DNA of 64,000 nucleotides from an uncultured Gammaproteobacteria bacterium (GCA_964588165.1 CAZPMS010000006.1:3425-67424); one strand, 5' to 3'. Counted from the first letter of the stretch, positions 786 through 63,345 are shown. The notes: generated by a model not told the origin, from the letters alone. Translations and numbers: made by a program.

Positions 786-1316
786 TTACACTACAAAAGC
801 CGCGGGGTCGCCGTGGCTGAAGTCATAACCAAGCCAGTGTCCAAGCCAGCCCCACCTGTCGTCGTCCCAGTAGAGGAAACGAACGCTTAGGTCGCCATTT
901 GGGTAGCGATATATGGTACCCCAGAAGAAGATACGTTTACTTTTCCATTCCTCAGGAATAAGGTACGGATAAGCAAGTAGGTAGTCAAGGACATTGGCGT
1001 TGAAAACGGGCTTACCTTTCAGCTCCTTGTAAAGCTCATTGCCTTCAATTGCACTATCACCTTCTTGCTTCTTGGAAAGATAGAAAGAAACCCCGTTGGG
1101 ATCCCATTCCAGCTGTCCGCCATTGGTATGCTCTTCGACTTTCCAGTCTTTGGGCGCGAAAGGTTTGGCATCGCAATCAATAATACTGGTACCTCTTAGT
1201 AAAATCTGCAAGCCGGCCTTGGTAATTCTTCCGCTCTCAATTTGAGCGAAAAACTCTTTTAGCTGAGCGGGCGTTGGAGCTTTTGGACCCCAGTCAGCAG
1301 CATGTGATCTATGCAT
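786..1316 (-). CDS. hypothetical protein, Trp-rich (GC-rich islet ORF 1)
   Basis: 176-177 aa ORF. ATG at 1316 lies 6 nt after AGGAGG (the track start is GTG at 1319). G+C is clearly higher than the flanks. Own promoter and terminator. No family recognised. Confidence 0.6.
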   Translation of the reverse strand: MHRSHAADWGPKAPTPAQLKEFFAQIESGRITKAGLQILLRGTSIIDCDAKPFAPKDWKVEEHTNGGQLEWDPNGVSFYLSKKQEGDSAIEGNELYKELKGKPVFNANVLDYLLAYPYLIPEEWKSKRIFFWGTIYRYPNGDLSVRFLYWDDDRWGWLGHWLGYDFSHGDPAAFVV

Positions 1317-1458
1317 CACACACCTCCTATTTTAAACACTTTGCTAGAGGACTACCCCTTGTAGTCATAGCCAGAAATTACCATCCTTCGACAAAATATA
1401 GGATAACAAGTAACTTTTGGCTATAACTACTAGATTAAATGAACTTAAAGAATATATT

Positions 1459-1487
1459 ATACTAGCATATTTTACTTATTTTGTCAA
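1459..1487 (-). promoter_or_regulatory. sigma70-type promoter of islet ORF 1
   Basis: Minus strand TTGACA (1487-1482), N17, TAGTAT (1464-1459). This leaves a ~140-nt leader with a long-range stem GTTATAGCCA/TGGCTATGAC before AGGAGG. Confidence 0.6.
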
Positions 1488-1610
1488 GTTTTTATACCGT
1501 CTCTATTAATCATACTTATTATGGTCATGCTATGACTTTAGCTTTCACCTAACCAAACCCAAAGCCAATAAAAATCAACTAGTGGAATTAAAAAAAGCTT
1601 TTCCTCAATT

Positions 1611-1693
1611 GTCATTTCGAGCTCCGTCGAGAAATCCCGTTATAAACAGTACGTTTTAATAACACGGGATCCCTCCGCTCCGGTCGGGATGAT
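1611..1693. mobile_element. 83-bp MITE, GTCAT-TIR family, copy 1
   Basis: Left arm GTCATTTCGAGCTCCGTCGAGAAATCCCGTTA. Right arm reverse-complements to ATCATCCCGACCGGAGCGGAGGGATCCCGTGTTA. Centre contains AGTACGT. Same length and layout as 57437-57519. Confidence 0.75.
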
Positions 1694-1705
1694 AAAAATC
1701 AAATC

Positions 1706-1736
1706 AAAAAACGGGGAATAAAATCCCCGCTTTTTT
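1706..1736. terminator. bidirectional hairpin terminator
   Basis: CGGGGA-ATAAAA-TCCCCG (1712-1729) flanked by an A-run and a T-run. Sits just downstream of the stop of 1750-2283 (minus). Confidence 0.7.
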
Positions 1737-1749
1737 AAATATCTTATAT

Positions 1750-2283
1750 CTATTTTTTATTGATAACGTTCTCTATGGCTGCCCATTGGCTATCGGCTCC
1801 TTTGGGCACCAAAATTACCACTTCATCGCCCTCGCCACCTTTAAAATAAGTAACCGAGGCCAAAATAACTTTAAAGGCTTTCTTTTCTGCTAAGGCACTA
1901 TATTCACCGGTGGCTTCATCCCTAATAAGCTTGCCTACTAAACGTTCTCTTTCTACCGGGCCGATTTGCTTGTAAATAAAATTACCGGCTTCATCTATAG
2001 TTAATTTTAAAATATCTCCCTCAACCAATTTTGATTTAGAAATATAGTTGGCAGGAACTGAATATTGCTTGCCATCCGGGCCGATCATTTTTTCACCATC
2101 AAACACGCCTTCTATTATTCTTTCATCGCCCTTTTTAGTTTCCTCGCCTACTACAGAAGCTTTTTTGGTAAAGTCAGTTTTATCTGTCGGGCCAATGCTG
2201 CCCCCTTCTAAAATAACTTTACATTTTTGCACTTGGATTTCAATATTATCCAAAATTTGTTTTAGTTCATTTACGTTTTTCAT
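1750..2283 (-). CDS. conserved hypothetical protein
   Basis: 177 aa AT-rich native-style ORF. No motif I can name. Confidence 0.55.
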   Translation of the reverse strand: MKNVNELKQILDNIEIQVQKCKVILEGGSIGPTDKTDFTKKASVVGEETKKGDERIIEGVFDGEKMIGPDGKQYSVPANYISKSKLVEGDILKLTIDEAGNFIYKQIGPVERERLVGKLIRDEATGEYSALAEKKAFKVILASVTYFKGGEGDEVVILVPKGADSQWAAIENVINKK

Positions 2284-2403
2284 ATTTATTTTTATTTAAT
2301 TTTATTTTGTTTTATATCTATTTTTGATAGTATTTTAAATATATCAGTAACAATAAAGCTGTCAATTAATATCTTGTTAATAAATTGTGAAAAAATAACA
2401 CCA

Positions 2404-2497
2404 ATAACACACGATGCTCACGAATGGCTCACAGATAGCGCGAGGATATATGTGCGCTATTAGTGTAATATCAGTGAGCAACAGTATTATTAGTGAT
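2404..2497 (+). repeat. noncoding element F, copy 1 (homologous to 47986-48077)
   Basis: Shares the exact 15-mer GTGCGCTATTAGTGT (2452-2466 vs 48031-48045), AGCAACAGTrTTATTAGT (2477-2494 vs 48057-48074) and ATAACAC..GATGCTC in the same order and orientation. Confidence 0.6.
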
Positions 2498-2504
2498 TAT
2501 TCTG

Positions 2505-5075
2505 TTACTTATTAGCAGTGTCCTGCGAAAGCTTCATCCTTTCCAAAATCTCCTGTTCTACAATATTCCTGTCTCGGCCGTACTTTAAGCGCGAAGCTTC
2601 TTTAACTTTAAAAACGATTGATTTATCACCAGGCTTTGGCGGATAAGTTTTAATGTTAAAAGCCGGCACGTTCTGGTTATCTATTAATAATTTTAGATAG
2701 GCGTTAAACTTAGGAATATTTATTAAATCATATTCATTAAAAACAGGGTTAAACTGTTTAGCCACTAGTTCGGCATCATCCGGGCCTATCCTAAAGGAAG
2801 CCATTGTACCTACATTGCCAAAAACAGAATCCCTGATAGAAGTATCGTTGCCTTTTACCAGCTGGCCCACATATTGGTGCGCCACAGTTAAACTTAATTT
2901 ATATTTTCTGGCTTCTGATAAAATTATAGAAATGCTTTCGGTAATGAAATTTTGGAACTCATCTATATATAAATAATAATCGTGCCGCTTTTCTTCTGGC
3001 AATTCTACTCTGGAGAGGGCGGATATTAGAATCTTGCCAACAACTACCATGCCCAATAAATTTGCGGACATATCACCAATGGTCCCTTTGGCCAGTTTAA
3101 TTAGCAAAATCTTTTTCTTGTCCATTACTTCTCTAAAATTAAAAGAACTTTTTTGCTGGGCAATAATCGGCCTTAATAAATCGCTGGAGACAAATGGAGT
3201 TAATTTACTGGTGATATAAGGAACCATATTAGCCAATGATGCTTCGCCGCCGGCTTTTTCTGCCTCTTTCTCCCAAAAATCCCTTACCACCGGATTTACA
3301 CATTTAGAAAGCTTGTATCTCCTAAAATTAGGGTCGGCTAAAACCTTGGGTACTTCCAATAAAGTTGAGCCGGACACAGGATCTTCCATCATTAGCAGCA
3401 TGGCATTACGCATATACTGTTCAAACATTGGGCCACCGGTGGCTTTAAGGTCGTAGAGCTTATCAAAAATATTTATCATTTCGTTTATCACGAAAGTTTT
3501 TTGTTCCGGCGTGCTAAACTCCAGCATATTAAGCCCGATAGGCCTCTTGGTATCAGCTGGATCAAACAAAATTACATCGTCTACTCTGCCTTCGGGGATA
3601 TGCTCCATTACTGTTTCTATTAAATCTCCGTGGGGATCTATAACGCAAACGCCTTGGTTATTTTTAATGTCTTGGATTATCATGTTGGACATAAAAACAG
3701 ATTTACCGGTACCGGACTTGCCAATTATATACATATGCCTTAAGCGGTCCGAACTTTTAATTCTTATTGGCGCTTTTATTCCCCGATATAAATTCTCTCC
3801 CAAAATAAGGCCCTCTTTGGGTAAATTAAGAGGCGGCGTGGCCTTCCTGGCTTCTAACCAATTTATATTAGGTGTTTCTGAAGAAGGCAAAGGCAAGTGC
3901 CATAGGCTGGCCATTTCTTCAGCATTTAAAATTAAACTTTTTTTTGGAATAAAACTTCTATGGATAAAATTGGAGATCAATTTGGGAACTTTAATAAATT
4001 TTGCTTTTTTAAATCCATTGCCATATTCATAAATATTAAACTGAGAAAAAGCATTAATAATATTTTCTAAATAAGCCTCGGCCTTTTGCCTGTTTGGAGC
4101 AGAAACCACTACCCTTATGTTTGCTTCCATGCCTGCCTTGCTGGTTTTTTCTTCAATACCTTTTACCACCTCTGCTTCCATGGGAGAAAGCATTCTTCTT
4201 TCATCTGCTTCTTCTATATTTTTAGAAGCATCCTTTTTAGTTTTAAAAAAGCTTAAAGTGCCAACCACAGCGTTGGTTAGCTTATCAAAAATATTGCCTA
4301 AGCCTGCTTTCCTTAAAGCTACACTTAATTTTTTACCCTGTTGCATTTCTCTTGCTACAATTACTCCTTTGCGATGCCAGCTTTTATAAGCAGACCTAGC
4401 CACCAGCTGAATGGCTGCTCCTGATTCTTCACCTATTTTTGAAAAAGCATTGGTTAAAGCATTTAACGGATCGCTATCAGACTTTTTGTAAGTTTTAATT
4501 GGAAAAATAAAATCTCTGCCAAACTTTAAATAACTGCCAACCACCACGCCCTGGGCAGAAAAAATATTATAGTCTTCTAACTCCTCTATCTGTGCAAAAG
4601 GGTAAGAAGCATGGATTTGCTGTTCTAGGGTATCTTTTAAATAATCAGGAATGGCTACATAAAAATTAATCTTGCCATTTTGGGTTACGATTTCTACAGA
4701 AAAATGGTCTGATCTGCCAAAGATCCAGCTCTTTGTCCCTCTCTGGGCTTTAAGGCCGCCTAAAACAGAAAAAATGTTTTCCGCTACACCTATTTGTTCT
4801 TGGATTGTTTGGGGGGAATCATCGGCACCTTCTTTTTTTAAATTTTCTTTAGGCACGGTAATGAGCAAAATTTTCATTTTTAAAGCAGAAGGAACCTTAT
4901 TGCTTTTGGCTAAAAAACTTCTAACAATTAAAAAGGCGGTTATTAAAACCACCAACAAGATAAATATTAAAATAAAAGCTAAAAACCAAGTATTTTCCAA
5001 AAGGGCATTAGCCTGGGCAGTAAAAGGCGAATTTGACTCTATAACTATTTGCAAGGCAAACAAAGTTAAATACAT
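2505..5075 (-). CDS. VirD4/TraG-family (type IV coupling protein-like) P-loop NTPase with N-terminal membrane anchor
   Basis: 856 aa. N-terminal TM segments, Walker A IGKSGTGKS, Walker B-like YYLYIDEFQNF, then AHQYVGQL. Assignment by motif only. Confidence 0.65.
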   Translation of the reverse strand: MYLTLFALQIVIESNSPFTAQANALLENTWFLAFILIFILLVVLITAFLIVRSFLAKSNKVPSALKMKILLITVPKENLKKEGADDSPQTIQEQIGVAENIFSVLGGLKAQRGTKSWIFGRSDHFSVEIVTQNGKINFYVAIPDYLKDTLEQQIHASYPFAQIEELEDYNIFSAQGVVVGSYLKFGRDFIFPIKTYKKSDSDPLNALTNAFSKIGEESGAAIQLVARSAYKSWHRKGVIVAREMQQGKKLSVALRKAGLGNIFDKLTNAVVGTLSFFKTKKDASKNIEEADERRMLSPMEAEVVKGIEEKTSKAGMEANIRVVVSAPNRQKAEAYLENIINAFSQFNIYEYGNGFKKAKFIKVPKLISNFIHRSFIPKKSLILNAEEMASLWHLPLPSSETPNINWLEARKATPPLNLPKEGLILGENLYRGIKAPIRIKSSDRLRHMYIIGKSGTGKSVFMSNMIIQDIKNNQGVCVIDPHGDLIETVMEHIPEGRVDDVILFDPADTKRPIGLNMLEFSTPEQKTFVINEMINIFDKLYDLKATGGPMFEQYMRNAMLLMMEDPVSGSTLLEVPKVLADPNFRRYKLSKCVNPVVRDFWEKEAEKAGGEASLANMVPYITSKLTPFVSSDLLRPIIAQQKSSFNFREVMDKKKILLIKLAKGTIGDMSANLLGMVVVGKILISALSRVELPEEKRHDYYLYIDEFQNFITESISIILSEARKYKLSLTVAHQYVGQLVKGNDTSIRDSVFGNVGTMASFRIGPDDAELVAKQFNPVFNEYDLINIPKFNAYLKLLIDNQNVPAFNIKTYPPKPGDKSIVFKVKEASRLKYGRDRNIVEQEILERMKLSQDTANK

Positions 5076-5083
5076 ATATAATT

Positions 5084-5611
5084 TTACTTTCTATTTTTTA
5101 AACCTAATATCCTATCAGCTTTTATTTTAGCTTCTTGTTCTAAAAAAAACCTGTTTACTCCAGGAATAATTTTAAGCCAGTTTATAATTAGTTCAAATAT
5201 TTTTTGTGTTTTAATTTTGGCAGCGCCTAAGAGTTGTGAAATTTTTGTAGCTGTTTCTTCGCCGGCCTTTCTAAATTCCTTCTGTTTTTCGGGCGGCATT
5301 TTGCTATAAACTTCAGCAAGGCCAGTTTCTAAAACACTCTCTATTTGCTTAAAATAGACTCCTTTAGCAACTACTGGCTGTGTTTTTATTGGTTTTGCCG
5401 GAACTGAGATTGGCGGTTCCTCTTTTTTGCCTTTTTTAAATTCCTGGTCAGCCGGCAAAGCCTCTGTTTTAACCTCCTGTTTTTGTTCAGGAACTAAATC
5501 TGGAATTTCTAAAATCTCGGGCTGTTTTTTTATAGCCTCTTTTTTAGGCAACTCTGAAGCAACTTCCAGCCCTGCCAGCGGATCTTCTATTTTATCTTGA
5601 TTTTTATCCAT
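5084..5611 (-). CDS. hypothetical protein (Lys/Glu/Pro-rich N-terminus)
   Basis: 175 aa ORF, 8 nt upstream of the ATPase gene on the same strand. No recognisable domain. Confidence 0.5.
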   Translation of the reverse strand: MDKNQDKIEDPLAGLEVASELPKKEAIKKQPEILEIPDLVPEQKQEVKTEALPADQEFKKGKKEEPPISVPAKPIKTQPVVAKGVYFKQIESVLETGLAEVYSKMPPEKQKEFRKAGEETATKISQLLGAAKIKTQKIFELIINWLKIIPGVNRFFLEQEAKIKADRILGLKNRK

Positions 5612-5655
5612 CTTAGCTTTTATTATACAATATTATTGGTTAATCTTCAATAAAA

Positions 5656-5664
5656 TGATATAAT
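5656..5664 (+). promoter_or_regulatory. extended -10 (TGaTATAAT) candidate for corA
   Basis: TGATATAAT lies 44 nt upstream of the corA ATG. No clear -35. Confidence 0.45.
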
Positions 5665-5707
5665 TTAAATGTAAAATACTACACACTACCAACTACAAAC
5701 TAATACC

Positions 5708-6640
5708 ATGCCAAAATCAAAAAACATCAAAGAGATTAAAACCAATAAAATGAAATGGATTTACTTAACCAATAACTCAAAAAGGGAAATTGATTATTTA
5801 AGGAACCATTTTTCTTTCCACCCATTAGATCTAGAAGATTGCCTTTCTCCGGCTCAACGGCCAAAGCTGGATGAATACCAAAACTATATTTTTATGATAA
5901 TGTCTTTCCCCTATTTTAACCGTTCTACCAGAGAAATACTGGCATCGGAAGTGGATTTTTTTATTGGCCCAAATTATTTAGTAACCGTTTCTGACGGCAA
6001 GCTGGCACCTTTAGCCAATTTTTTTGAACAATGCCAAATTAATGATTCTTACCGAGAAAAGTTTTTAGTTGATAGCCCGGCTTTTTTACTTTCAGAAATC
6101 TTAAATAAGCTTCAGCTTTACCTCCACCCAATGCTGGACCATATTCATGTTGATATCGAAAATGTCCAAAAAGTTATATTTGCCGGCTATGAAAAAAAGA
6201 TGGTTAAAGAAATTTTAATGGTTAAACGAAATATTATCAGCTTTAGAAAAATTATGCAGGCCCATAAAAACGTTATCCGCAAGCTCATTTCTAAAAAAGA
6301 AAAATTCTTTATTCCCAACACGGCTAATGTTTATCTTTCCAATAATCTGGAACAATCTAAAGATGTTTGGGATAATCTAGAAAGCCTTAAAGAAAATGTA
6401 GAAGCTTTGCATACAACCAACGAATCTTTAATTTCATTCAGGTTAAACGACATCATGAAAATTTTAACCATGATTTCTGTGATACTCCTGCCGATTAACT
6501 TAATTGCTTCCATTTTTGGCATGAACACGCCAATTATGCCTTTTATAAATAATCCAAACGGCTTTTATATTATTTTAGGCCTAATGTGCTGTTTGATAGT
6601 GTCTTTCTTCTTTTTCTTTAAAAAGAAAACTTGGCTATAA
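5708..6640 (+). CDS. corA: magnesium/cobalt transporter CorA
   Basis: 310 aa with two C-terminal TM helices and the signature FGMN (ASIFGMNTPIMPF). Confidence 0.85.
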   Translation: MPKSKNIKEIKTNKMKWIYLTNNSKREIDYLRNHFSFHPLDLEDCLSPAQRPKLDEYQNYIFMIMSFPYFNRSTREILASEVDFFIGPNYLVTVSDGKLAPLANFFEQCQINDSYREKFLVDSPAFLLSEILNKLQLYLHPMLDHIHVDIENVQKVIFAGYEKKMVKEILMVKRNIISFRKIMQAHKNVIRKLISKKEKFFIPNTANVYLSNNLEQSKDVWDNLESLKENVEALHTTNESLISFRLNDIMKILTMISVILLPINLIASIFGMNTPIMPFINNPNGFYIILGLMCCLIVSFFFFFKKKTWL

Positions 6641-6695
6641 ACTAGGTGGTAGTTAGTAGTTAGTAGATTCTTGATTAATTAAATATTGTTATATT

Positions 6696-6733
6696 AAAAA
6701 AGCCGTCCCGGATAAAACCGAAGGGCGGTTTTT
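6696..6733. terminator. bidirectional terminator between convergent corA and 6757-7173
   Basis: GCCGTCCC...GGGCGG stem (6702-6728) with an A-run before and a T-run after. Confidence 0.6.
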
Positions 6734-6756
6734 AATTTTAATCTACTCACTACAAC

Positions 6757-7173
6757 CTACTCACTAAATACAACTATCTCCTCATTAGTTTCTTCCAACA
6801 TATACCTTAAAGTATATACTTGGCCGTCGGACCAATAATAATAAGAAATATTTTCTGAAGCTGATGGATCTTGAGGAACTTCACCTAAAGCATTAACTAA
6901 AGCTTCATAACCATTGCTGGCTTCATCATTTTGGAAAGGAAAATTGTTATTTTGGCTATTATACTCTGTTAACTTGTTTTGAACAGCTTGAATATCTTCT
7001 TTTCTCTTAATATCTCTTTGTTTTACCAATTCTTTTTCATGATCTATGCCAGCCATAACTCCAGTACTAACCAAACCGATAATAGCTAAAGCTAACGGAA
7101 TAACTAAGATAACAGCACCTTTTTTATCTCGCCATGAGTAAATTTGAGAAGCGGATTTATTAGTTAAATTCAT
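6757..7173 (-). CDS. hypothetical membrane-anchored protein, pilin/pseudopilin-like C-terminal region
   Basis: 138 aa with an N-terminal hydrophobic helix. The RDIKRKEDIQAVQNKLTEYNSQNNNFP stretch resembles type IV pilin-like globular-domain openings. No G/FTLIE cleavage motif. Confidence 0.4.
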   Translation of the reverse strand: MNLTNKSASQIYSWRDKKGAVILVIPLALAIIGLVSTGVMAGIDHEKELVKQRDIKRKEDIQAVQNKLTEYNSQNNNFPFQNDEASNGYEALVNALGEVPQDPSASENISYYYWSDGQVYTLRYMLEETNEEIVVFSE

Positions 7174-7273
7174 ATTTTATTAGCTATATTTATATAGGTA
7201 ACTGAGGCATTATACTCTTTCTAAGAAAATCGTCAAGTTATCCTTGAAGTTAATTAAAATACATCCACGAGCT

Positions 7274-7312
7274 ATCTGCGGGTAATCTGGCGGGTAATCT
7301 GTGTTATCTGCG
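7274..7312 (+). repeat. phased heptamer array A (ATCTGCG, ATCTGGC, ATCTGTG, ATCTGCG)
   Basis: Heptamers start at 7274, 7285, 7297 and 7306 (spacing 11, 12, 9). The array ends 7 nt before TTGACA at 7319. Confidence 0.75.
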
Positions 7313-7318
7313 ACAGCA

Positions 7319-7347
7319 TTGACAAACCTGCTATTTTATGATAAGCT
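7319..7347 (+). promoter_or_regulatory. sigma70-type promoter of islet ORF 2
   Basis: TTGACA (7319-7324), N17, TAAGCT preceded by TG (extended -10-like). The leader contains CAACAAAAC-ATAGAGAGG before the ATG at 7397. Confidence 0.55.
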
Positions 7348-7396
7348 GATTTATTAAATTCTTTAACAACACCAACAAAACATAGAGAGGTCTACC

Positions 7397-8260: not shown

Positions 8261-8277
8261 ACCAAGTTAATTTCATT

Positions 8278-8311
8278 CCGTCGGTTAACACTAATAACCG
8301 GCGGTTTTTTA
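8278..8311 (+). terminator. Rho-independent terminator of islet ORF 2
   Basis: CCGTCGGTTA / TAACCGGCGG stem followed by TTTTTT. Confidence 0.7.
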
Positions 8312-8359
8312 TTTAAAAAAACTTAAAAATAAAAAATAGTAGATAGATATCCGCGGACT

Positions 8360-8409
8360 ATCAGTGATTAATCAGTGATCGTTCCGCGAATATCAGTGAA
8401 TTATCTATG
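8360..8409 (+). repeat. phased heptamer array B (ATCAGTG x3, ATCTATG)
   Basis: Heptamers start at 8360, 8371, 8392 and 8403 (spacing 11, 21, 11). The array ends 7 nt before TTGACA at 8416. Confidence 0.7.
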
Positions 8410-8415
8410 AAAAAC

Positions 8416-55483: not shown

Positions 55484-56839
55484 TTATTTAATATACTTAT
55501 CTACCAGCTTACTGGCTAAACCGATATAATTTTCCGGGGTAAGCTTTAGCAGCTGATCCTTTGCCTGTTTGCTTATCTTTAAACTTCTAATGAATTTATG
55601 AAGCTCAATTTTATTTATAGTTTTTCCTCTGGTTAATTTTTTTAAAGCCTCATACGGTTTAGGATAGCCTTCTTTTCTTAAAACCACCTGGATTGGTTCG
55701 GCTAAAAGCTGCCATTGGTCTGATAATTCCTCTGCTACTTTTTGTTTATTTACTTCTAAACGTGATAAGCCTTTTAAAGTTGATTTTAAGGCCAATAAAC
55801 TATAGCCAATGGCCACGCCTTGGTTTCTCAATACTGTACTATCAGAAAGATCACGTTGCATCCTGGAAACTGCTAATTTTTCTGCTAAATGATTTAGAAT
55901 TGAGTTGGACAGCCCAAGATTACCTTCACTATTTTCAAAGTAAATTGGATTTACCTTATGGGGCATGGTTGATGAACCGACTTCTCCCTTAACTTTTTTC
56001 TGTTTGAATATGCCACGACTGATATAAAGCCAGATATCTTGATCTAAATCTTTGATAATATTATTAACTCTTATTAAATGATGGTAAGCTTCAGCTGATC
56101 CGTCATGAGGCTCTATTTGAGTTGTTAAAGGATTAAATTCAAGGCCGAATGATTCAATAAAATTTTTGCTAAAGCCAAGCCAGTCTACTTTTGGATAAGC
56201 AACCAAATGGGCACTCCAATTACCAACTGCTCCGGAAAATTTTCCTTTTAACGGCAACTGATTAATTTGATCATTGATTCTCTTATAAAAAACTGCTAAC
56301 TCCTTGCCAATGGTAGTTGGGCTGGCTGGCTGGCCATGGGTTAAAGCCAGTAGTGGAGTCCTGCGATGCTTGACTGCTGTTGACCTTAGTTCTTTCAATA
56401 ATTTATTTAAAGATTTTTTATAAGTAGCTAAGCCATCTTTTAACATTAAGGTGTAAGCCAGATTATTTATATCTTCTGAAGTTAAGCCGAAATGAATAAA
56501 TTCCTGATAGTCTTCCAATCTTTTAATCTTCTTAATCTTCTCCTTCAAATAATATTCAACCGACTTAACATCATGATTAGTTGTTTTTTCTATCTTCTTA
56601 ACTTTCTCAGCCTCCTTTATATCAAACTTTTCATAAATAGTTCTAAGTAGCACTCTTTCTTCGTCTGTGAATTCCCGCACTTCCGGAATTTTTGATTCGT
56701 TGGATAAGGCGATTAAATATTCCACTTCAACCTTAAGCCTGTACTTCATTAAAGCACTTTCAGAAAAAATTGAGTTTAGTTCTTTAACCTCATTATAATA
56801 ACGACCATCCAATGGAGAGATTGATGTTAAATTTGACAT
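55484..56839 (-). CDS. purB: adenylosuccinate lyase
   Basis: 451 aa. ISPLDGRY, the fumarate-lyase signature GSSTMPHKVNP. Confidence 0.93.
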   Translation of the reverse strand: MSNLTSISPLDGRYYNEVKELNSIFSESALMKYRLKVEVEYLIALSNESKIPEVREFTDEERVLLRTIYEKFDIKEAEKVKKIEKTTNHDVKSVEYYLKEKIKKIKRLEDYQEFIHFGLTSEDINNLAYTLMLKDGLATYKKSLNKLLKELRSTAVKHRRTPLLALTHGQPASPTTIGKELAVFYKRINDQINQLPLKGKFSGAVGNWSAHLVAYPKVDWLGFSKNFIESFGLEFNPLTTQIEPHDGSAEAYHHLIRVNNIIKDLDQDIWLYISRGIFKQKKVKGEVGSSTMPHKVNPIYFENSEGNLGLSNSILNHLAEKLAVSRMQRDLSDSTVLRNQGVAIGYSLLALKSTLKGLSRLEVNKQKVAEELSDQWQLLAEPIQVVLRKEGYPKPYEALKKLTRGKTINKIELHKFIRSLKISKQAKDQLLKLTPENYIGLASKLVDKYIK

Positions 56840-56946
56840 AAATGATTAAATTACCAATTAACAATTTCCAATAACCAATAAAATTCCAATTCTAAATTTA
56901 ATAATTTTTAATTTATTGGATATTGGTTATTGTAAATTAGATATTA

Positions 56947-57393
56947 TTAAAAGCTTTCTTTTATTTCCTTGATCTTATTTTTAACTTTATTTTGGATTGA
57001 CTCATCGGCCAAACCAAATATCCTAGCACAGGCAGCAGCCACATTTTTAGGATCCAAAACTGTAAGTACCGGCGTATCAGAAGGCATTTGCAAAGTTGAA
57101 TTAATGTTTACCATCATGTCTGATTTATCTTTAAAAGGCGGACAGGCAATAACCGGATGGACGGAATTGGCAGCCACTACTCCGGAAAGGCCGTTTGACC
57201 TACCGGCAATAGTTACGTAGACCAAATCTTTTTCCTTATTATTATTTTTTACAATTTCAAAAACCTTTTCCGGCACTTTATGGGCCGAAGCTATAATGGT
57301 TTCTGATTCTAAATCCCATTTCTTTAATTCCGATGATATTTTGTCAGCCCAATCTTTATCGGACGGACTGCCCATTATTAGAATGACTTTCAT
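56947..57393 (-). CDS. purE: AIR carboxylase/N5-CAIR mutase catalytic subunit
   Basis: 148 aa. IMGSPSD...ASAHK..P...AGRSNGL pattern. Confidence 0.85.
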   Translation of the reverse strand: MKVILIMGSPSDKDWADKISSELKKWDLESETIIASAHKVPEKVFEIVKNNNKEKDLVYVTIAGRSNGLSGVVAANSVHPVIACPPFKDKSDMMVNINSTLQMPSDTPVLTVLDPKNVAAACARIFGLADESIQNKVKNKIKEIKESF

Positions 57394-57436
57394 AAATTTA
57401 TGAATAAAAAATGTTATGGAAAACTTTACTTCTATC

Positions 57437-57519
57437 TGTCATCCTGAGCTTGCCGAAGGATCCCGTTACTTTTAGTACGTGCTATATAATACGGGATTCC
57501 TCAATGTAACTCAGAATGA
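57437..57519. mobile_element. 83-bp MITE, GTCAT-TIR family, copy 2
   Basis: Left arm GTCATCCTGAGCTTGCCGAAGGATCCCGTTA. The right arm reverse-complements to GTCATTCTGAGTTACATTGAGGAATCCCGTA. Centre contains AGTACGT. The outer flanks AAACTTTACTT / AAGTAAAGTTT are also inverted. Confidence 0.8.
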
Positions 57520-57544
57520 CAAAAAGTAAAGTTTTACCTGATTA

Positions 57545-58546
57545 TTATACAAGATAACCGCTTTTTTTCAAATTTTCTTCTATTCTATCCTTAATACTAC
57601 CCTCTTTGGCCTTAAACTGTTGGCCAGTTATCATTTCATACAGTTTTATATATCTGGATGAAAGTTCCACGACAAGCTCTTTAGGGGCTTCTGGCAGTTT
57701 TTCGTCATTATACGGATCACAGTGATCTTTAAACCACAATCTTAAAAATTCCTTATCAATATTATCAGGTTCTTTGCCATCTGATATTCTTTGTTGATAA
57801 GACTCTGCCAGCCAATACCTGGATGAATCCGGCGTATGGATTTCATCTATAAGCATAATATTACCTTCTTCATCCTTTCCGAATTCATATTTGGTATCAA
57901 CTAAAATTAAGCTGTTTTTGCTGGCTACTTCTTGGCCGAATTTAAAAAGTTCCATAGCTTTTTGGGAAATATAATCCCACTCTTGGGCAGTAGCAAAATG
58001 TTCCAACAAAATATCATTTTTGGAAATATTCCTGTCATGTTTTTCAAATTTAGTGCTGGGCGTAATTATTGGTTCCGTAAACTTTTGATTCTTCATCATA
58101 CCTTCTGGAAGTTTATTGCCGCAGAATTCCCTAACGCCTTTTTGATAATTAGTCCAAACTGCTGTATCAGTAGAACCAGTCATGTATCCCCTAACAATTA
58201 CTTCAAACGGAAACACTTTACATTTTTTACCAACTACTACGTTAGGATCAGGAATATCTAAAACAAAGTTGGGAATAATATTTTTAGTTTGCTTAAACCA
58301 CCAGGCGCTTGTTTGGTTTAGAACTTGGCCTTTAAACGGAATTGAGGCTAGCACTCTATCAAAAGCTGACTGCCTATCAGTTGTAATTAAAATTATTTTA
58401 TCTTCTGCTTGTCCTGAACCAGCTTTAGCTTGGTGCTGGATAAAATAGGTATCCCTTACTTTACCTGTCTTTTTTTCACCAAGGCCTTTAAAGTCAATCT
58501 CGGTTAAAACGTTATGAATGTTTTTTTCAATAATTTTTTTATCCAT
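57545..58546 (-). CDS. purC: SAICAR synthetase (long form)
   Basis: 333 aa. GKVRDTY..., ILITTDRQSAFD, LILVDTKYEFG. Confidence 0.9.
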   Translation of the reverse strand: MDKKIIEKNIHNVLTEIDFKGLGEKKTGKVRDTYFIQHQAKAGSGQAEDKIILITTDRQSAFDRVLASIPFKGQVLNQTSAWWFKQTKNIIPNFVLDIPDPNVVVGKKCKVFPFEVIVRGYMTGSTDTAVWTNYQKGVREFCGNKLPEGMMKNQKFTEPIITPSTKFEKHDRNISKNDILLEHFATAQEWDYISQKAMELFKFGQEVASKNSLILVDTKYEFGKDEEGNIMLIDEIHTPDSSRYWLAESYQQRISDGKEPDNIDKEFLRLWFKDHCDPYNDEKLPEAPKELVVELSSRYIKLYEMITGQQFKAKEGSIKDRIEENLKKSGYLV

Positions 58547-58559
58547 ATTATTATTTTAA

Positions 58560-59123
58560 TTATTTTCTAGCTTGTTTAAGGGCTCCTGCATACCATTCCA
58601 GTTCATCTAAAAAATTAACTACCCGCTTATTATATTTTTCATCCAAGGCTTTGCCATTTTCATCAAAAGCATCATTAATCCCGGAAACCATAAAGGAAGT
58701 TGGAATACTAGATGCGCCAAGTTCACCCATTACCGCCCTCAAAGGATTTAAAACTCTAACCCCAGCAAACGGACCTGCAGAATAAGTTACAATTCCACTG
58801 GGCTTGTAATGATATTCAGCTTGAAAATGGTCTAAAATATTTTTTAAAACCGGCGGCACACCATGATTGTATTCACCGGAAACCAATACAAAACCATCGG
58901 CCTGCTCTAAAACCTGATGGACTTTTTCTATGGGCTCTGGAGCTTTGCCAGCATCATATTCCTTATACATTTTATCTAGCATAGGCAAATTAAATTCCAG
59001 TTGATCAACTAGTGTAACTTCGTGTCCGCGCTCTTTTAACTGGTTGGTAATAAATTTTGCCAGTTTAGTGCCCTGGCGTTCGGTCCTTACGGAACCGTAA
59101 ATTACTGCAATATTTAAAGACAT
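58560..59123 (-). CDS. NADPH-dependent FMN reductase family protein
   Basis: 187 aa. IAVIYGSVRTERQGTKLAKF and SGEYNHGVPPVLKN patterns. Confidence 0.7.
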   Translation of the reverse strand: MSLNIAVIYGSVRTERQGTKLAKFITNQLKERGHEVTLVDQLEFNLPMLDKMYKEYDAGKAPEPIEKVHQVLEQADGFVLVSGEYNHGVPPVLKNILDHFQAEYHYKPSGIVTYSAGPFAGVRVLNPLRAVMGELGASSIPTSFMVSGINDAFDENGKALDEKYNKRVVNFLDELEWYAGALKQARK

Positions 59124-59134
59124 AATTTTATTGG

Positions 59135-59533
59135 TTAATTTTTTTTTTCACTGAGAACTTCTTCTATAGTTCTCTTTTTTATAATTAAAGGATGATAATA
59201 AAAAACTGATTGATTATTAAATTCACCTACAAGATATATTTTCAACTTCTTATCTTTAGCCTGAAGCGCTAAAGCCATTCCCAGTTCCACATACTTTCCC
59301 CTGCCTTCAGCAGGATCGGTAAATAAAATAAATACATCTGCTTCCAATAATCCATCTAAATCCCTCACTGCTCTAAAGCTGGCTTCTTCTGATTTGGCTT
59401 CCCTTTCTTTAGTAGAAATCGGCACGTCATTGAACCACTCAACAACGATTTCATGTCCTGATTTTTTAACCAGATCTGCTGCCTTAACAACTTCTTCTTT
59501 GCTTTCTAAAGTTCCGGCCAAATAAACTTTCAT
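59135..59533 (-). CDS. nucleoside 2-deoxyribosyltransferase-like protein
   Basis: 132 aa. MKVYLAG... Rossmann-like start and an acidic motif after beta-4. Weak call. Confidence 0.45.
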   Translation of the reverse strand: MKVYLAGTLESKEEVVKAADLVKKSGHEIVVEWFNDVPISTKEREAKSEEASFRAVRDLDGLLEADVFILFTDPAEGRGKYVELGMALALQAKDKKLKIYLVGEFNNQSVFYYHPLIIKKRTIEEVLSEKKN

Positions 59534-59535
59534 AA

Positions 59536-60771
59536 TTAATAATTTTCAATTGATTGAGAAAAAGGATTTGCTAAAATATTTGATTCTAAAATTTTCTGCC
59601 AGTCATCTGCTGAACATTCAACTTCCCACAAAACTCCATTTTTTATTGAACTGATCTCGGACATATTTAATCTATTATTTAATGTATCAAGTTTTGCCTG
59701 CCCCGTAAAATCGTCTTTGTATCTAGTGAGTAGTTTGTAGGTGGTAGTGAGTAGTTTTGATTTGTCATTAATATAAGGAATCTCCTTATTGGTATTTAAC
59801 AGTTCGTTTGATTTTATTAATTGGTCCACAAACTGTTCTGACTGATCAATAGATTGAATTTCCCAATGAGTATAACGTTTAACTTTGACGCCACTAAAAC
59901 CAAGGTTATTTAAAGCAGTTTGAAGGGTTTCTGCTTCATTGTCGGTAATTATAAGTTCAACCAACATTTCCATAGCCTCTTCCGGTTTTTTATATTCCCC
60001 ATTTTGAATTTGATTATTAAAATTTTGTATCTTGTCTGTTTCTTGCTTCTTGTTTCTTGCTTCTTGTTTATCTAAATAAGCTTTCATTGATTCAAATATA
60101 ATCTGTCCATCATCCGTTCTTTCCGGATGAGGCATTAAAGCTAAAACATTACCAGCCGGATTGCTAACTCCGGCTAAATTATAAACAGCACCATTGGGAT
60201 TAATAGGAAATTGATCTTTTACTTCCCCATTTTTGTCACAATACCTAAAAACTGTCTGGCCATTTTCTTTTAATTGATTTAAGACATCCTCATTAATAAC
60301 AAACCTGCCTTCACCATGGGCAATGGGTAATCCAAAATGATGGCCTTGTTTATAATTATTAAAAGCTGATCTTCCTGACTGAACATCATTTTTAATTCTA
60401 ACCCAAATATTTAAATAACCATGGTTATTCCAAGCCAAGGATGATCCTAAATGGTGGTTTTCTAATCCAGGAATCAATCCAGATTCAACCAAAATCTGAG
60501 CGCCATTACATATACCAATAACCGGCTTGCCTTTGGCTGACTCTTGTTTAACAATATCCATCAAAGGATCCCGGCCGGCAATAGCGCCTGACCTTACTCT
60601 ATCTTCGTAACTAAAACCACCGGCAATAAAATAACCGTCAAATTCCTTTAATTTATTATAATCATCGTTCCATCTAAAAAATTCCGCGTCCATACCGGCT
60701 TTTTTTATAGCCCGAGCTGACTCGTACTCACAATTAGTGCCGGGAAATTGAATAATAGCTATTTTATGCAT
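59536..60771 (-). CDS. purQ: FGAM synthase glutaminase subunit PurQ fused to two PurS-like repeats
   Basis: The N-terminal ~230 aa are a class I GATase (IAIIQFPGTNCE, GICNGAQIL, MPHPER). The C-terminal ~150 aa contain two PurS-like units ending LLNTNKEIPY and ILANPFSQSIENY. The linkers are encoded by reiterated word tracts. Confidence 0.85.
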   Translation of the reverse strand: MHKIAIIQFPGTNCEYESARAIKKAGMDAEFFRWNDDYNKLKEFDGYFIAGGFSYEDRVRSGAIAGRDPLMDIVKQESAKGKPVIGICNGAQILVESGLIPGLENHHLGSSLAWNNHGYLNIWVRIKNDVQSGRSAFNNYKQGHHFGLPIAHGEGRFVINEDVLNQLKENGQTVFRYCDKNGEVKDQFPINPNGAVYNLAGVSNPAGNVLALMPHPERTDDGQIIFESMKAYLDKQEARNKKQETDKIQNFNNQIQNGEYKKPEEAMEMLVELIITDNEAETLQTALNNLGFSGVKVKRYTHWEIQSIDQSEQFVDQLIKSNELLNTNKEIPYINDKSKLLTTTYKLLTRYKDDFTGQAKLDTLNNRLNMSEISSIKNGVLWEVECSADDWQKILESNILANPFSQSIENY

Positions 60772-60773
60772 AA

Positions 60774-61607
60774 TTAATTTGTATCAATATTATTTTGTAG
60801 TTCTTCATTGGAAATAAATTTTGGCCAATTCGGAAGTTGTTGATTACTGTATCTGATAACCTCTGCTTGTGGGGTTTTCTTTTTCCTAATTTCTTCTCTA
60901 TCTTTTATTTCATCTAAAATACCGAATAACATTCTAAAGCTTCCATTATGCCCGGAAACTAAAATTTTTATTGGTCGGTTATTTTGTTCTTGAAACTTTT
61001 GGGCTAATTTATATACATCATTTAAAAACCAAATAAGTTTCCCCAGCACCATTGAATAATTTTCACCGCCTGGAAAAAATCTGCCATAAGAGAATCCCTT
61101 AGCTTTTTCTTCGGCTGCCAATGAATCTTTTTTCTGGCCACCATATTCACCGTAACACCTCTCATTTATTCTTTGATCGATAACAAACCTTTCTTCAGGA
61201 ATTTCTATACCAGCTGACTTTAAAGTTTCTCTGACAGTAACATCAGTTCTGCTCAAACCAGATCTAACTACCAAATCAAATTCTTCTCCTTCTAAATTTT
61301 TACCCATAGCCTGAGCCTGTTCATAACCTTTCTCGGTTAATTCAGCATCAACTGTTCCGGTAAATTTTTTTGCCTCATTATGGGTTGTTTGGGTATGCCT
61401 GATAAATGAAAAATCTATTGCTGTTTTACCAATCTCTTCTTTTAACTTTAAATATTGCTGATATAAATATTCTATTTTGGGTAAAATTTCTCTTAAAATA
61501 TCCGGAGTGGGAATATCTTCTAAATTTTTAGACAAGGTTGAAGCACTTTCCCATAGTTCTCTAATAGAAATTCTCTCTTGCTCAAATTGTGGACCCTCTT
61601 CGTTCAT
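60774..61607 (-). CDS. histidine phosphatase (phosphoglycerate mutase-like) family protein
   Basis: 277 aa. FIRHTQTTHN (RHG-type motif) and a later SGHNGSF (H of the catalytic pair). Confidence 0.65.
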   Translation of the reverse strand: MNEEGPQFEQERISIRELWESASTLSKNLEDIPTPDILREILPKIEYLYQQYLKLKEEIGKTAIDFSFIRHTQTTHNEAKKFTGTVDAELTEKGYEQAQAMGKNLEGEEFDLVVRSGLSRTDVTVRETLKSAGIEIPEERFVIDQRINERCYGEYGGQKKDSLAAEEKAKGFSYGRFFPGGENYSMVLGKLIWFLNDVYKLAQKFQEQNNRPIKILVSGHNGSFRMLFGILDEIKDREEIRKKKTPQAEVIRYSNQQLPNWPKFISNEELQNNIDTN

Positions 61608-61629
61608 GTTTAAATTAATTTATTGCTGA

Positions 61630-61766
61630 CAGATTTTAAATCTTTTTTATATGATGCGGACAGATTTTAAATCTGCCCCTTTCTTACCGCTAACCACTTT
61701 ACCTATTTCGAAAACTTTCTCACCTGATTTTTCCAATTCTGAACGAACAGATTTTAAATCTGCCCC
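61630..61766. repeat. three copies of the 15-bp palindrome CAGATTT-T-AAATCTG at the purM 3' end
   Basis: Copies at 61630-61643 (14/15), 61661-61675 and 61748-61762. The last two are embedded in the 20-mer ACAGATTTTAAATCTGCCCC, 87 bp apart. Confidence 0.75.
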
Positions 61767-62684
61767 GACGATTAATACCATGCCAATGCCCATATTAAAA
61801 ACTCTATACATTTCTTCTTCTGCCACTTCTCCAACTTTTTGGATTAATTTAAAAATTGGCAGTATGTCCCAGGAATGTTTTTTTATCTCAACAGATAAAC
61901 GTTTTGGCAAAACTCTGGGAATATTATCTATAAATCCACCGCCAGTTATATGAGCAATACCGTTTATTTTTTCAACTAAAGGCAAAACTGACTTTACATA
62001 AGATTTATGTGGCATAGCCAACTCTTTGCCTAAACTAAAATTCAGTTCATCAAAATGGCTATCGGCCGTGTAATTATTTGCTTCAAAAAATATCTTTCTA
62101 ATTAAAGATGCGCCGTTAGTATGCATGCCGGATGATGCTAATCCCAGTAAAACATCACCTTCTTTAATTTTTTCACCGGTGATTATTTTATCTTTTTCTA
62201 CAATACCCGTAATACAGCCGGCTACATCATGTTCGCCTTTAACGTAGACTCCCGGCATTTCTGCAGTTTCTCCGCCAATTAAACTGACTCCGTTTTCCAT
62301 GCAGGCTTTGGCCATGCCTGTAACTATTTCTTCTATTTCTTTAGGATCAAGCTTATCGGCAGCTATGTAGTCTAAAAATGTTAAAGGTTTAGCTCCTTGG
62401 CACAAAATGTCATCACAGCAATGGTTAACAATATCCTCACCAACAGTTTCTAGGTTACCAACCATTTTGGCAACTTTAAGCTTAGTGCCTACGCCGTCTA
62501 TGCTTTGGACTAAAATTGGTTGGTTATAATCTTTTAATTGGCTGGCATCATACATGGCTCCAAAGGAACCTAAACCGGTAACCACATTGGCATCAAAAGT
62601 GGCCTTTACTTTATCTTTTATTTTATTTACTGCTTCATTACCGGCATCTATGTTAACACCAGAAGATTTATAACTAATTGACAT
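61647..62684 (-). CDS. purM: AIR synthetase (phosphoribosylformylglycinamidine cyclo-ligase)
   Basis: 345 aa. YKSSGVNIDAGN, DGVGTKL, GGETAEMPG. The C-terminal GADLKSVRII repeats an internal GADLKSVR. Confidence 0.93.
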   Translation of the reverse strand: MSISYKSSGVNIDAGNEAVNKIKDKVKATFDANVVTGLGSFGAMYDASQLKDYNQPILVQSIDGVGTKLKVAKMVGNLETVGEDIVNHCCDDILCQGAKPLTFLDYIAADKLDPKEIEEIVTGMAKACMENGVSLIGGETAEMPGVYVKGEHDVAGCITGIVEKDKIITGEKIKEGDVLLGLASSGMHTNGASLIRKIFFEANNYTADSHFDELNFSLGKELAMPHKSYVKSVLPLVEKINGIAHITGGGFIDNIPRVLPKRLSVEIKKHSWDILPIFKLIQKVGEVAEEEMYRVFNMGIGMVLIVGADLKSVRSELEKSGEKVFEIGKVVSGKKGADLKSVRII

Positions 62685-62746
62685 ATTTTTTACTTATTAA
62701 AAATATTTTAACACCGGCTTGTCCGCCGAAGCCTTGGCGTAGGTGG

Positions 62747-62787
62747 GCATCAATATTAACGCCTGATGATTTATAATCTATTGACAT
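62747..62787 (-). pseudogene. duplicated purM 5' end (first ~14 codons)
   Basis: Minus strand ATGTCAATAGATTATAAATCATCAGGCGTTAATATTGATGC (MSIDYKSSGVNIDA) versus the real MSISYKSSGVNIDA at 62684-62644. A GC hairpin (~62714-62735) lies between the copies. Confidence 0.75.
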
Positions 62788-62808
62788 ATTTTATTTATTA
62801 TATAATAT
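62781..62808 (+). promoter_or_regulatory. sigma70-type promoter of islet ORF 9
   Basis: TTGACA (62781-62786, the reverse complement of the duplicated purM ATGTCAA), N16, TAATAT. Confidence 0.55.
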
Positions 62809-62847
62809 ATATTAATTCGTACCTTTAAACCAACGAGGATTAAAAAA

Positions 62848-63345
62848 ATGCGTTTACGCAGCAGTGTTTTTCTAGCTTTATTACTGTTTTTGCTGTTTGG
62901 TTGTGGATTTATGTTTGAAGAACCGGAACAACCGACCTTTGAAGAAACCCTGAATCTAGTCCAACAATATACCTTTGAAGGGACGGTAGAAAAAACAGAA
63001 ATGCCCATATTTGATACCATTATCATATCTGCAAAGTCTGGAGGAAGAATATACACAATAGGGGTAATGAATCCCAACTGGATCTACTATAACCAAATGG
63101 ATCCTATTGCCCAGTTTGAAAACCCCTTTGATTATGAAAATGTTCATAATCTAAAAAATCAGTTAACAACTGGCTCCCGAATCCGTATTGCTATTAATCA
63201 AGCTCTACCAATTGAATGCAGTGTCCCTTTCAGACTAGTTTACGCAAATAATGATAGTATTCCTTATATCGACTATTTCCTCGAAGGTTTTACTATTCCA
63301 GCATATTTTTCTCCAACTGGTATTACTGAAATACCAATTCCTTGA
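62848..63345 (+). CDS. hypothetical lipoprotein (islet ORF 9)
   Basis: 165 aa. Signal peptide with lipobox LLFGC. SD GAGG. Sits between purM and purL on the opposite strand. Confidence 0.55.
   Translation: MRLRSSVFLALLLFLLFGCGFMFEEPEQPTFEETLNLVQQYTFEGTVEKTEMPIFDTIIISAKSGGRIYTIGVMNPNWIYYNQMDPIAQFENPFDYENVHNLKNQLTTGSRIRIAINQALPIECSVPFRLVYANNDSIPYIDYFLEGFTIPAYFSPTGITEIPIP

Follow-up and report, generated by a model that had tools for sequence, protein, structure and literature searches.

Two classes of translation-start signal in a chromosomal segment assigned to Parcubacteria

We analysed a 64,000-nt stretch of DNA (CAZPMS010000006.1:3425-67424; hereafter the window), which we assign to an uncultured Parcubacteria bacterium within the candidate phyla radiation (CPR). 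We observed that nine single-gene transcription units in it, here called islets 1 to 9, have their start codons behind Shine-Dalgarno (SD) sites, whereas the genes around them, with few exceptions, carry no such signal. Two modes of translation start seem to coexist in one small genome. We interpret the islets as resident cassettes of accessory genes, part of the flexible gene pool of Patescibacteria, which start in an SD-dependent manner in an otherwise SD-independent genome, and we give this reading a probability of about 0.6.

Start signals, promoters and composition

A sequence-only reading of the window had listed nine GC-rich open reading frames (ORFs) with strong SDs, mostly antisense to a backbone of native genes that had none. 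All nine ORFs were found intact at the positions given there, seven of them on the + strand and two (786-1316 and 48151-48645) on the - strand, where the backbone lies almost wholly. Gene calls were taken from public contigs, each being checked by translation, and pairing energies with the anti-SD ACCUCCUUU were calculated over positions -20 to -4. A canonical SD was present 5-10 nt upstream of the ATG in 9/9 islets, with duplex energies of -5.9 to -11.5 kcal/mol (mean -8.0), as compared to a mean of -0.2 kcal/mol for about 60 other genes (Mann-Whitney p = 4e-6). When the 60-nt upstream region of each islet was shuffled, its SD energy was matched in 0.1-2.9% at most (Fisher combined p ~1e-12). 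The pairing energies and the shuffling therefore bear out the strong SDs at the nine ORFs. The absence of SDs from native genes holds for their mean, but not for every gene, as 21925-23049 has AAAGGAG (-8.1) and 42124-43506 has GAGG (-7.1). We also scanned intergenic ORFs of at least 12 aa and obtained no further credible SD-led one, only non-ATG starts in tRNA spacers and leader ORFs of 12-17 aa, and we therefore consider the list of nine complete.

One native gene deserves separate mention. The public start of 27564-29045 (-), at 28952, has no SD; a longer ORF begins at an ATG at 29045, behind AAAAGGAGG (dG -11.8), and this ATG overlaps the 3' end of the AMMECR1 gene. This may be a case of a native gene whose SD-led start overlaps its neighbour.

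Over positions -20 to -1, the A+T content of native leaders is 82%; A occupies -3/-4 in 61-63% of them, and T occupies -1 in 68%. The start regions (-30 to +30) fold with a mean minimum free energy (MFE) of -4.2 kcal/mol in native genes versus -7.9 kcal/mol in islets (p = 0.001). Weak structure and a Kozak-like context, A(-3)/U(-1), characterise native starts. From -10 boxes, a few native transcripts are candidates for being leaderless (28966-29526, 5084-5611 and 44310-45599); we discarded leaderless transcription as a general inference from such boxes, which is too noisy in spacers of 80% A+T.

The islets had also been described as having promoters and terminators of their own. In 9/9 of them, TTGAC(A/T)-N16-18 with a -10 box is predicted upstream and a GC-stem with a T-run downstream. 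However, these signals are not specific to islets, since native units carry both: perfect or nearly perfect matches to TTGACA-N16-18-TAnnnT are also present ahead of hrcA, 1750-2283, 6757-7173, 44310-45599 and the tRNA-Asn gene, and native units likewise end in intrinsic terminators. At hrcA, the promoter (16877-16850; TTGACA-N16-TATACT) is followed by the inverted repeat of a controlling inverted repeat of chaperone expression (CIRCE) element, TTAGCACTC-N9-GAGTGCTAG (window 16820-16877), and from this arrangement we conclude that the genome has sigma-70 consensus promoters and HrcA control of its own.

Nearly every spacer also holds short arrays of phased 7-12-nt repeats, the unit differing from array to array (ATCTGCG.., ATCAGTG.., TGATGAATAATGATTAA.., ACTACCAACTAC.., TTTAGAA..), for example at 2400-2504, 5680-5707, 7284-7318, 8352-8405, 14100-14228, 18220-18250, 47822-47940, 49125-49156 and 56840-56946. 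Similar arrays are found in other Patescibacteria contigs (e.g. TAATTAG and CTAGGGA in comparison contig L036; L-numbers denote comparison contigs throughout). The arrays are not specific to islets, and the ATCTGCG-like repeats upstream of islet promoters were rejected as a shared regulator site because native spacers hold such arrays too.

Across all genes, the two classes differed in GC, codon usage and anti-SD pairing, the SD difference being the strongest and that in GC weaker. Whole-ORF GC was 0.42-0.48 in eight islets versus a native mean of 0.35 (p ~1e-5), and the mean GC of third codon positions (GC3) was 0.42 in islets versus 0.29 in natives (p ~1e-4). The ninth islet (62848-63345; GC 0.363, GC3 0.283) does not share the GC-richness claimed for all nine, and the GC ranges overlap (native DnaJ 0.40, DnaK 0.39). 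The - strand islets were the most extreme, with GC3 of 0.50 (786-1316) and 0.48 (48151-48645) and the strongest SDs. At four-fold sites of Ala, Gly, Pro and Thr, GC3 was 0.42 in islets versus 0.41 in natives, and both classes avoid GCG, ACG and TCG. The codon usage of the islets does not reflect an overall rise in GC. Where the second base is A or T, they have C in excess over T (0.43 versus 0.18); they also have more Leu CTN (0.69 versus 0.32) and more Arg CGN (0.60 versus 0.24), and their amino-acid composition is shifted, GC1, GC2 and the content of Gly/Ala/Arg/Pro being higher. Among native genes themselves, third-position C/(C+T) is 0.10-0.25 after an A/T versus 0.31-0.58 after a G/C second base, a context-dependent bias (WC to WT) that is far weaker in islets.

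Table 1. Positions, signals and products of the nine islets and extent of the native backbone, counted from the first letter of the window
Feature	Unit	Strand	ORF	Signals	Product or content
Islet 1	667..1702	-	1316-786	promoter TTGACA-N17-TAGTAT/TATAAT 1487-1456; structured ~140-nt leader; SD TAGGAGGTG 1329-1321; terminator 761-721	176 aa
Islet 2	7319..8314	+	7397-8260	promoter 7319-7347; SD GAGAGGT 7385-7391; terminator 8278-8314	287 aa, acidic, C-terminal transmembrane anchor
Islet 3	8416..10932	+	8516-10882	promoter TTGACA-N17-TAAATT 8416-8444; SD AAAGGAGT 8501-8508; bidirectional terminator 10891-10932	788 aa: soluble N-terminal part, ~5 transmembrane segments, C-terminal domain
Islet 4	14238..14810	+	14307-14762	promoter 14238-14266; SD CAAGGAGA 14293-14300; terminator 14779-14810	151 aa, soluble; between dnaK and hrcA-grpE-hsp20 operon
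Islet 5	45653..46410	+	45737-46354	promoter TTGACT-N17-TAAAAT 45653-45681; weak SD TGGAGA 45723-45728; terminator 46373-46410	205 aa, N-terminal signal or anchor
Islet 6	46424..47296	+	46683-47096	promoters 46563-46591, 46613-46642; SD GTGAGGGA 46671-46678; terminator 47137-47169	137 aa, ~3 transmembrane segments
Islet 7	48085..48732	-	48645-48151	promoter 48732-48704; 52-nt leader; SD TAGGAGGAG 48657-48649; terminator 48123-48085	164 aa, all-alpha
Islet 8	51594..51791	+	51655-51747	promoter 51594-51622; SD TAGGAGT 51643-51649; terminator 51758-51791	30-aa acidic peptide; antisense between purN and purH
Islet 9	62746..63394	+	62848-63345	promoter 62781-62808; weak SD CGAGGA 62834-62839; terminator 63360-63394	165 aa, lipoprotein-type signal LLFGC; not GC-rich
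Native backbone, ~60 genes without SD	1750..62684	-			including VirB4-like cluster, dnaJ, dnaK, hsp20, grpE, hrcA
Native backbone, further members	1750..62684	-			MacB/ABC genes, tpiA, fba, scpAB, two class-II aminoacyl-tRNA synthetase genes, pur genes

Recurrence, families and insertion footprints

The window has a G+C content of 36%. Judged by its sequence relationships, it comes from the chromosome of an uncultured bacterium of the Parcubacteria (Patescibacteria/CPR), because the closest relatives of its DnaJ come from Parcubacteria metagenome-assembled genomes (57% identity) and because it is collinear over 20 kb with a contig of Parcubacteria GW2011_GWF2_45_11 (L011, L046), whose DnaK is 86% identical. 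Identical or nearly identical contigs were found in metagenomes of JGI (3300009375, 3300009106 and 3300009374), Logan (SRR8062333 and SRR9166048) and ENA (ERZ23499059, ERZ23499057 and ERZ23499079). A strain variant, L039, is 99.99% identical to the window, with three single-nucleotide polymorphisms across 20.9 kb, too few differences for an estimate of dN/dS.

A core without SDs accompanied by a minority of genes with strong ones recurred in nine Patescibacteria contigs (L036, L121, L122, L123, L125, L046, L032, L013 and L035) spanning 33% to 54% G+C, and also in L029. Among the SD-less core genes there are those for S6, S18, SSB, EF-P, TruB, SecDF, TGT, L19, IF1, S13, S11, S4, RpoA and L17. 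Per 15-20 kb, these contigs hold one to several genes with a perfect SD such as AAAAGGAGG, mostly small, unannotated and often antisense. We considered whether SD-led genes keep a constant GC of about 50% regardless of the host; this is true of the islet 1 family and some ORFans, but fails in L013, L032 and L029. The heat-shock gene hsp20 is SD-led in L013 (5947-6378) and L035 (7074-7508), and not in the window. In L032, an SD-led antisense ORF of 84 aa (7160-7414) lies upstream of dnaK, in the same slot as islet 4.

Searches with the nine islet proteins gave no significant match in Pfam, PHROGs, NCBIfam or PADLOC; the best hit among PHROGs was to an unannotated family, over 16 residues (E 4e-5). 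There is no paralogy among the nine. Membrane or secretion features (anchors, signal peptides or several transmembrane segments) are predicted in 5/9 products. Homology and structure had been proposed as a check on the nine products, and this check was productive for islets 1 and 7, which proved to belong to families, but not with the curated libraries, nor for islet 3, whose sole match among 5.8e9 protein clusters was itself.

By homology, islet 1 is a relative of the variable (target) proteins of Patescibacteria diversity-generating retroelements (DGRs). Its C-terminal ~130 aa are present four times in a protein, P0013. With a profile built from the four copies, at least 2671 proteins were retrieved, which are about 190 aa long and show 55-67% identity within the ~130-aa domain; all named sources are Patescibacteria (Moranbacteria, Paceibacterota, 'Patescibacteria group'). 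In tblastn, islet 1 was 53-57% identical to the DGR targets of L121, L122 and L123. The last 71-125 nt of these homologues (123-125 in L121/L122) match, at 84% identity, a repeat lying 250-380 nt downstream, and the mismatches between the variable repeat (VR) and this downstream copy, the template repeat (TR), fall at adenines of the TR. An RVT_1 reverse-transcriptase gene comes next in L121 and L122 (2/3 loci). The VR/TR pairs with adenine mismatches, together with RVT_1 in two loci, constitute a DGR signature.

The W/G/D/Y/H-rich C-terminal stretch of islet 1 itself aligns to these foreign TRs, differing from them at AAC codons of the TR. Neither a TR nor a reverse transcriptase for islet 1 was found in the window (64 kb) or within 1.5 kb outside its start; the window, L001 and L008 hold no second copy of the 3' end of islet 1 and no RVT gene. 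Islet 1 may be either a remote or an orphaned DGR target. Its AlphaFold2 model (predicted local distance difference test score, pLDDT, 89) has weak-scoring structural neighbours, mostly of C-type-lectin/formylglycine-generating-enzyme folds and including the DGR proteins TvpA and Mtd, and would be compatible with a C-type lectin fold. DGRs of clade 2 are confined to Patescibacteria, and their targets have no other known domains (PMC8144416).

The islet 1 homologues of L121-L123 are all SD-led, and they exceed their neighbours in GC in L122 and L123, but not in L121, which has 54% GC. In L122 (35% G+C), the DGR target is GC-rich and SD-led, whereas the reverse-transcriptase gene adjoining it in that element has no SD and is AT-rich; because that gene is host-like, the GC and SD features are gene-specific rather than a relic of a donor genome. 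The leader of islet 1 (1330-1456, -; ~140 nt) holds a long near-perfect hairpin (leader MFE -43 kcal/mol). The DGR-target leaders of L122 and L123 are alike over about 200 nt, their proteins being just ~55-60% identical.

The family of islet 7 is small (16 cluster representatives). Its promoter, leader hairpin and SD are kept at the nucleotide level in L124 and in L125, a CPR-like contig of ~48% G+C, which makes three genomes with the window (leader sites: window 48646-48703, -; L124 60-124; L125 7955-8015). A 9-bp hairpin in the leader, two of whose pairs are compensatory, precedes a CUCCU-like stretch able to pair with the SD; the leader matches no Rfam family at the gathering threshold. It looks like an SD-sequestering translational control element. 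The all-alpha model of the protein (pLDDT 94.7) has no convincing structural neighbour. In L125, the SD-led ATG of the homologue is 15 nt downstream of the public start, which appears to be wrongly called.

A comparison of synteny with relatives had been proposed to find empty sites, and such sites were found. Contig L046 is collinear with window 1750-21889, the shared order being the 177-aa gene, VirB4-like gene, 175-aa gene, corA, dnaJ, dnaK, 111-aa gene, hsp20, grpE, hrcA, macB, macB, ABC ATPase gene and yknX. As the L046 junction between the 111-aa gene and dnaK is just 24 nt, islet 4 is missing from it; as that between the 177-aa gene and dnaX is ~170 nt, so is islet 1. Islet 2, together with the 138-aa gene, is missing as well, so that three of the four testable islets (1, 2 and 4) are absent at syntenic L046 sites. 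L046 also has genes of its own here: two extra ones between dnaK and dnaJ (8786-9947; an rpiB-like 142-aa and a 189-aa gene) and a separate 118-aa J-domain ORF ahead of dnaJ (10001-10357).

The fourth testable site is occupied. In the corA-dnaJ slot, L046 has orf239 and orf489, oriented as islet 3, with SDs TGGAGGTGAAAG and CAGGAGGAAAG and G+C contents of 0.57 and 0.62 versus 0.48 for the L046 backbone. Their combined architecture is that of islet 3 (soluble part, multi-transmembrane region, C-terminal domain), and the upstream blocks TTGACAAA, TTATGCTAA, GTTAAAAA and AAAAACG are collinear in the two. Relative to its own backbone, the L046 cassette has a four-fold value of 0.72 versus 0.77 and C after A/T of 0.72 versus 0.37. 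The two ORFs are probably a fast-evolving positional counterpart of islet 3. If so, a cassette with SD and GC excess would be older than the split of these lineages, whose backbones are 12 points of G+C apart.

Direct repeats mark insertion at two islets. The islet 6 cassette (46560-47192) is flanked by a 136-nt repeat (46424-46559 / 47161-47296; 89% identity, with a 104-nt core 97% identical), in which the 3' end of gene 47126-47821, for a pseudouridine synthase, is copied. A perfect 16-nt repeat, GGATGATAAAAATCAA (667-682 / 1687-1702), flanks the islet 1 unit in the region of the dnaX promoter. At islet 9, the promoter falls inside a 47-nt duplicate (62746-62792; other copy 62643-62689) of the 5' end of gene 61647-62684. 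Among the window genes there is no integrase or transposase, and no tRNA attachment site was found. Palindromes resembling repetitive extragenic palindromes (REP) or miniature inverted-repeat transposable elements (MITE) are dispersed in spacers ('GTCATTCCGAGCGAGGCTAAACCCTCGCC', 'GCAGAGGGTTTAGCCTCTGC', 'GTCATCCTGAGC..GGATCCCGTTA'; window 1560-1680, 43515-43555, 52395-52480 and 57430-57500; L036 8560-8600), one of them just within the 16-nt repeat of islet 1.

Other features of the window concern its backbone. The tRNA cluster Trp, Thr, Tyr, Thr (32000-34400) has long GC-rich spacers (43-57% GC) with tRNA-like fragments that ARAGORN does not call: 33998-34040 resembles the 3' half of the tRNA-Thr gene at 34104-34146, and 33320-33410 and 34200-34265 bear 'GTACC..GAGCTACAACGGC'. 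Small GIY-YIG endonuclease ORFs occur at 32259-32483, 33601-33882 and 43952-44236. The cluster looks like decayed or intron-bearing tRNA genes with homing-endonuclease remnants. A VirB4/DUF87-DUF8128 ATPase gene and small unannotated genes beside it (2505-5075 and neighbours), collinear in the relative, are likely to be part of a CPR type-IV-like apparatus. Just beyond the window, past dnaX, lies a gene with a phage-type P63C domain (L001 1-49).

Origin of the cassettes

In the reading that we favour, initiation would be SD-independent by default, on A/U-rich, weakly structured 5' regions, some operon heads having very short leaders. The nine monocistronic cassettes would be placed at operon boundaries, each composed of a host-type sigma-70 promoter, a leader of ~30-140 nt, an SD, the ORF and an intrinsic terminator. 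That the SDs function, that the cassettes depend on them and what makes the cassettes GC-rich are points on which we infer rather than observe: because the leaders and coding starts of the islets are GC-richer and more structured, SD:anti-SD pairing may be necessary for them (cf. PMC6847099), and because SDs are conserved in homologous cassettes across genomes, the ribosome would have retained a usable anti-SD. The direct-repeat footprints and the empty sites in the relative suggest that cassettes turn over, being gained and lost through insertion at junctions between genes. They would nevertheless be old residents and not fresh imports from an SD-using donor, since their four-fold sites are host-like, their promoters of host type and their features gene-specific.

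Several points weigh against this interpretation. With one close relative, gain and loss at the empty sites cannot be polarised, and at the protein level islet 3 and the L046 cassette are similar only at borderline significance (BLASTP E = 0.025). For islets 2, 4, 5, 6, 8 and 9, homology was covered by curated hidden Markov model libraries and ~1 Mb of comparison loci. No rRNA gene is present in the window or in any comparison locus, and a functional anti-SD is suggested solely by the conservation of SDs. SD-led genes in several contigs show no GC enrichment. Finally, CorA, the sole native + strand gene, has intermediate C-ending usage (window 0.31 versus 0.18; L046 0.50 versus ~0.35), and because this is so in both genomes, the C-rich third positions after A/T are partly a strand effect.

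The alternative that retains most ground is a native, vertically inherited class of highly expressed or specially regulated genes without mobility, which we regard as unlikely. Selection for very high or switchable output would account for the consensus promoters, the strong SDs, the C-ending 'weak' codons and the strong terminators. The codon shift of the islets, in TTC, TAC, AAC, ATC, Leu CTN and Arg CGN with unchanged four-fold sites, is that of classical translational selection, and the L046 counterpart has the same codon offset. The conserved leaders, the hairpin of islet 7 that may sequester its SD, and the somewhat raised C-ending usage of ribosomal-protein genes in L125 fit this explanation as well. 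However, ribosomal proteins, EF-P, IF1 and DnaK have no SD, and DnaK, TpiA and Fba of the window have native codon usage. Moreover, islets 1, 2 and 4 are missing in the relative, insertion footprints are present at islets 1 and 6, and most islets are lineage-restricted.

The sequence-only reading had likened the islets to phage morons dropped into a foreign chromosome. In its favour, the islets are autonomous single-gene units with deviant codon usage and a presence/absence pattern, whereas the phage context and the recent foreign origin were not supported. That moron-like genes were recently acquired from donors which use SDs and are richer in GC, be they phages, host bacteria or other phyla, we consider even less likely than vertical inheritance of a highly expressed class. 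Such an acquisition would account for the deviating GC, GC3 and codon usage, for the mostly antisense orientation, for the direct repeats flanking islets, for the absence of islets 1, 2 and 4 from L046, and for islet 3 having no relatives among 5.8e9 clusters. The last point cuts both ways, as a protein of 788 aa has no donor homologue there either. Against such an import, four-fold GC3 is native-like in the window as in the L046 cassette, both classes avoid the same codons, and the promoters are of the host's own type. Phage families gave no match, and islets 1 and 3, the two scanned, have no relatives on viral contigs. The families of islets 1 and 7 are Patescibacteria ones and keep their signals in hosts of 35-54% GC; of one and the same DGR in L122, only the target is GC-rich and SD-led; and the L046 slot matching that of islet 3 holds a probable counterpart that is likewise GC-rich and SD-led.

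An orientation artefact, in which strand-asymmetric mutation acts on the + (lagging) strand and the SD matches are incidental, would explain the intermediate usage of CorA, but it is largely refuted and highly improbable, as the two - strand islets have the strongest GC3 and SDs, CorA has no SD and the placement of SDs is highly non-random.

Building on the cassette reading, one may speculate on two initiation channels, an SD-independent one for the core and an SD-dependent one for mobile, fast-evolving cassettes, the latter being gated globally through exposure of the anti-SD or ribosome heterogeneity (occlusion of the bS21 type). We regard this extension as rather doubtful. If it were true, the whole host-interaction repertoire would be switchable at the level of the ribosome.

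Relation to known systems

To our knowledge, start-codon choice by CPR/Patescibacteria ribosomes is essentially unstudied, and our literature text searches returned no paper on a two-class arrangement of initiation in CPR. These ribosomes are reduced, often without bS21 and uL1; the anti-SD motif, found in just 48% of Parcubacteria 16S sequences, goes undetected in half of those examined (PMC9297842). Our data from the window and nine related contigs suggest that these genomes neither lack SDs nor use them throughout, but confine them to a discrete minority of genes, which in the window are accessory cassettes, a homologue of DGR variable proteins among them. If this is correct, the anti-SD should be retained and functional, and SD-led genes should form a separately controllable expression class. 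The presence of an SD would then be a simple marker for flexible or host-interaction genes in CPR, which are mostly unannotated. It would also matter for gene callers, which assume one ribosome-binding-site model per genome; the start of the L125 homologue of islet 7 is apparently wrong for that reason.

Islet 1 resembles Patescibacteria DGR variable proteins in being homologous to proteins with VR/TR pairs, but no TR or reverse-transcriptase gene lies near it, and it is just one of the nine islets. The likeness to phage morons is broader, as each islet is one gene with a promoter and a terminator of its own, and as the islets are atypical in composition, vary in presence between related genomes and are placed between conserved operons. 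Unlike morons, they are flanked by dnaX, dnaK/dnaJ, pur and aminoacyl-tRNA synthetase operons and not by a prophage, their neutral sites are at the equilibrium of the host, and some are conserved families of the host phylum. With lineage-specific ORFan or flexible-gene islets they share the scarcity or lack of homologues, insertions and deletions relative to a collinear genome, and flanking direct repeats. They differ from these in having one gene each, in lacking an integrase, a transposase and a tRNA attachment site, and in being set apart by a translation-initiation signal, which is unusual for islets. Nor do they look like an integrative genomic island, as repeats flank islets 1 and 6 only, no integrase is present and each unit has one gene.

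The closest known parallel is the SD-blind translation of Bacteroidia (Flavobacterium johnsoniae). There, mRNAs have no SD and upstream adenines are used instead, the anti-SD being sequestered by bS21/bS18/bS6, and the very few SD-bearing genes (rpsU, the prfB frameshift site) are read by bS21-less ribosomes (PMC6847099, PMC7797042, PMC9976891). The window shares with them the genome-wide absence of SDs, the A/U-rich and weakly structured starts with position-specific A, and a minority with strong SDs. It differs in belonging to a CPR phylum, in having T at -1 as the strongest context signal, and in the SD-led set itself, which makes up ~13% of the window genes and appears to consist of autonomous accessory or hypervariable cassettes instead of ribosomal autoregulatory genes.

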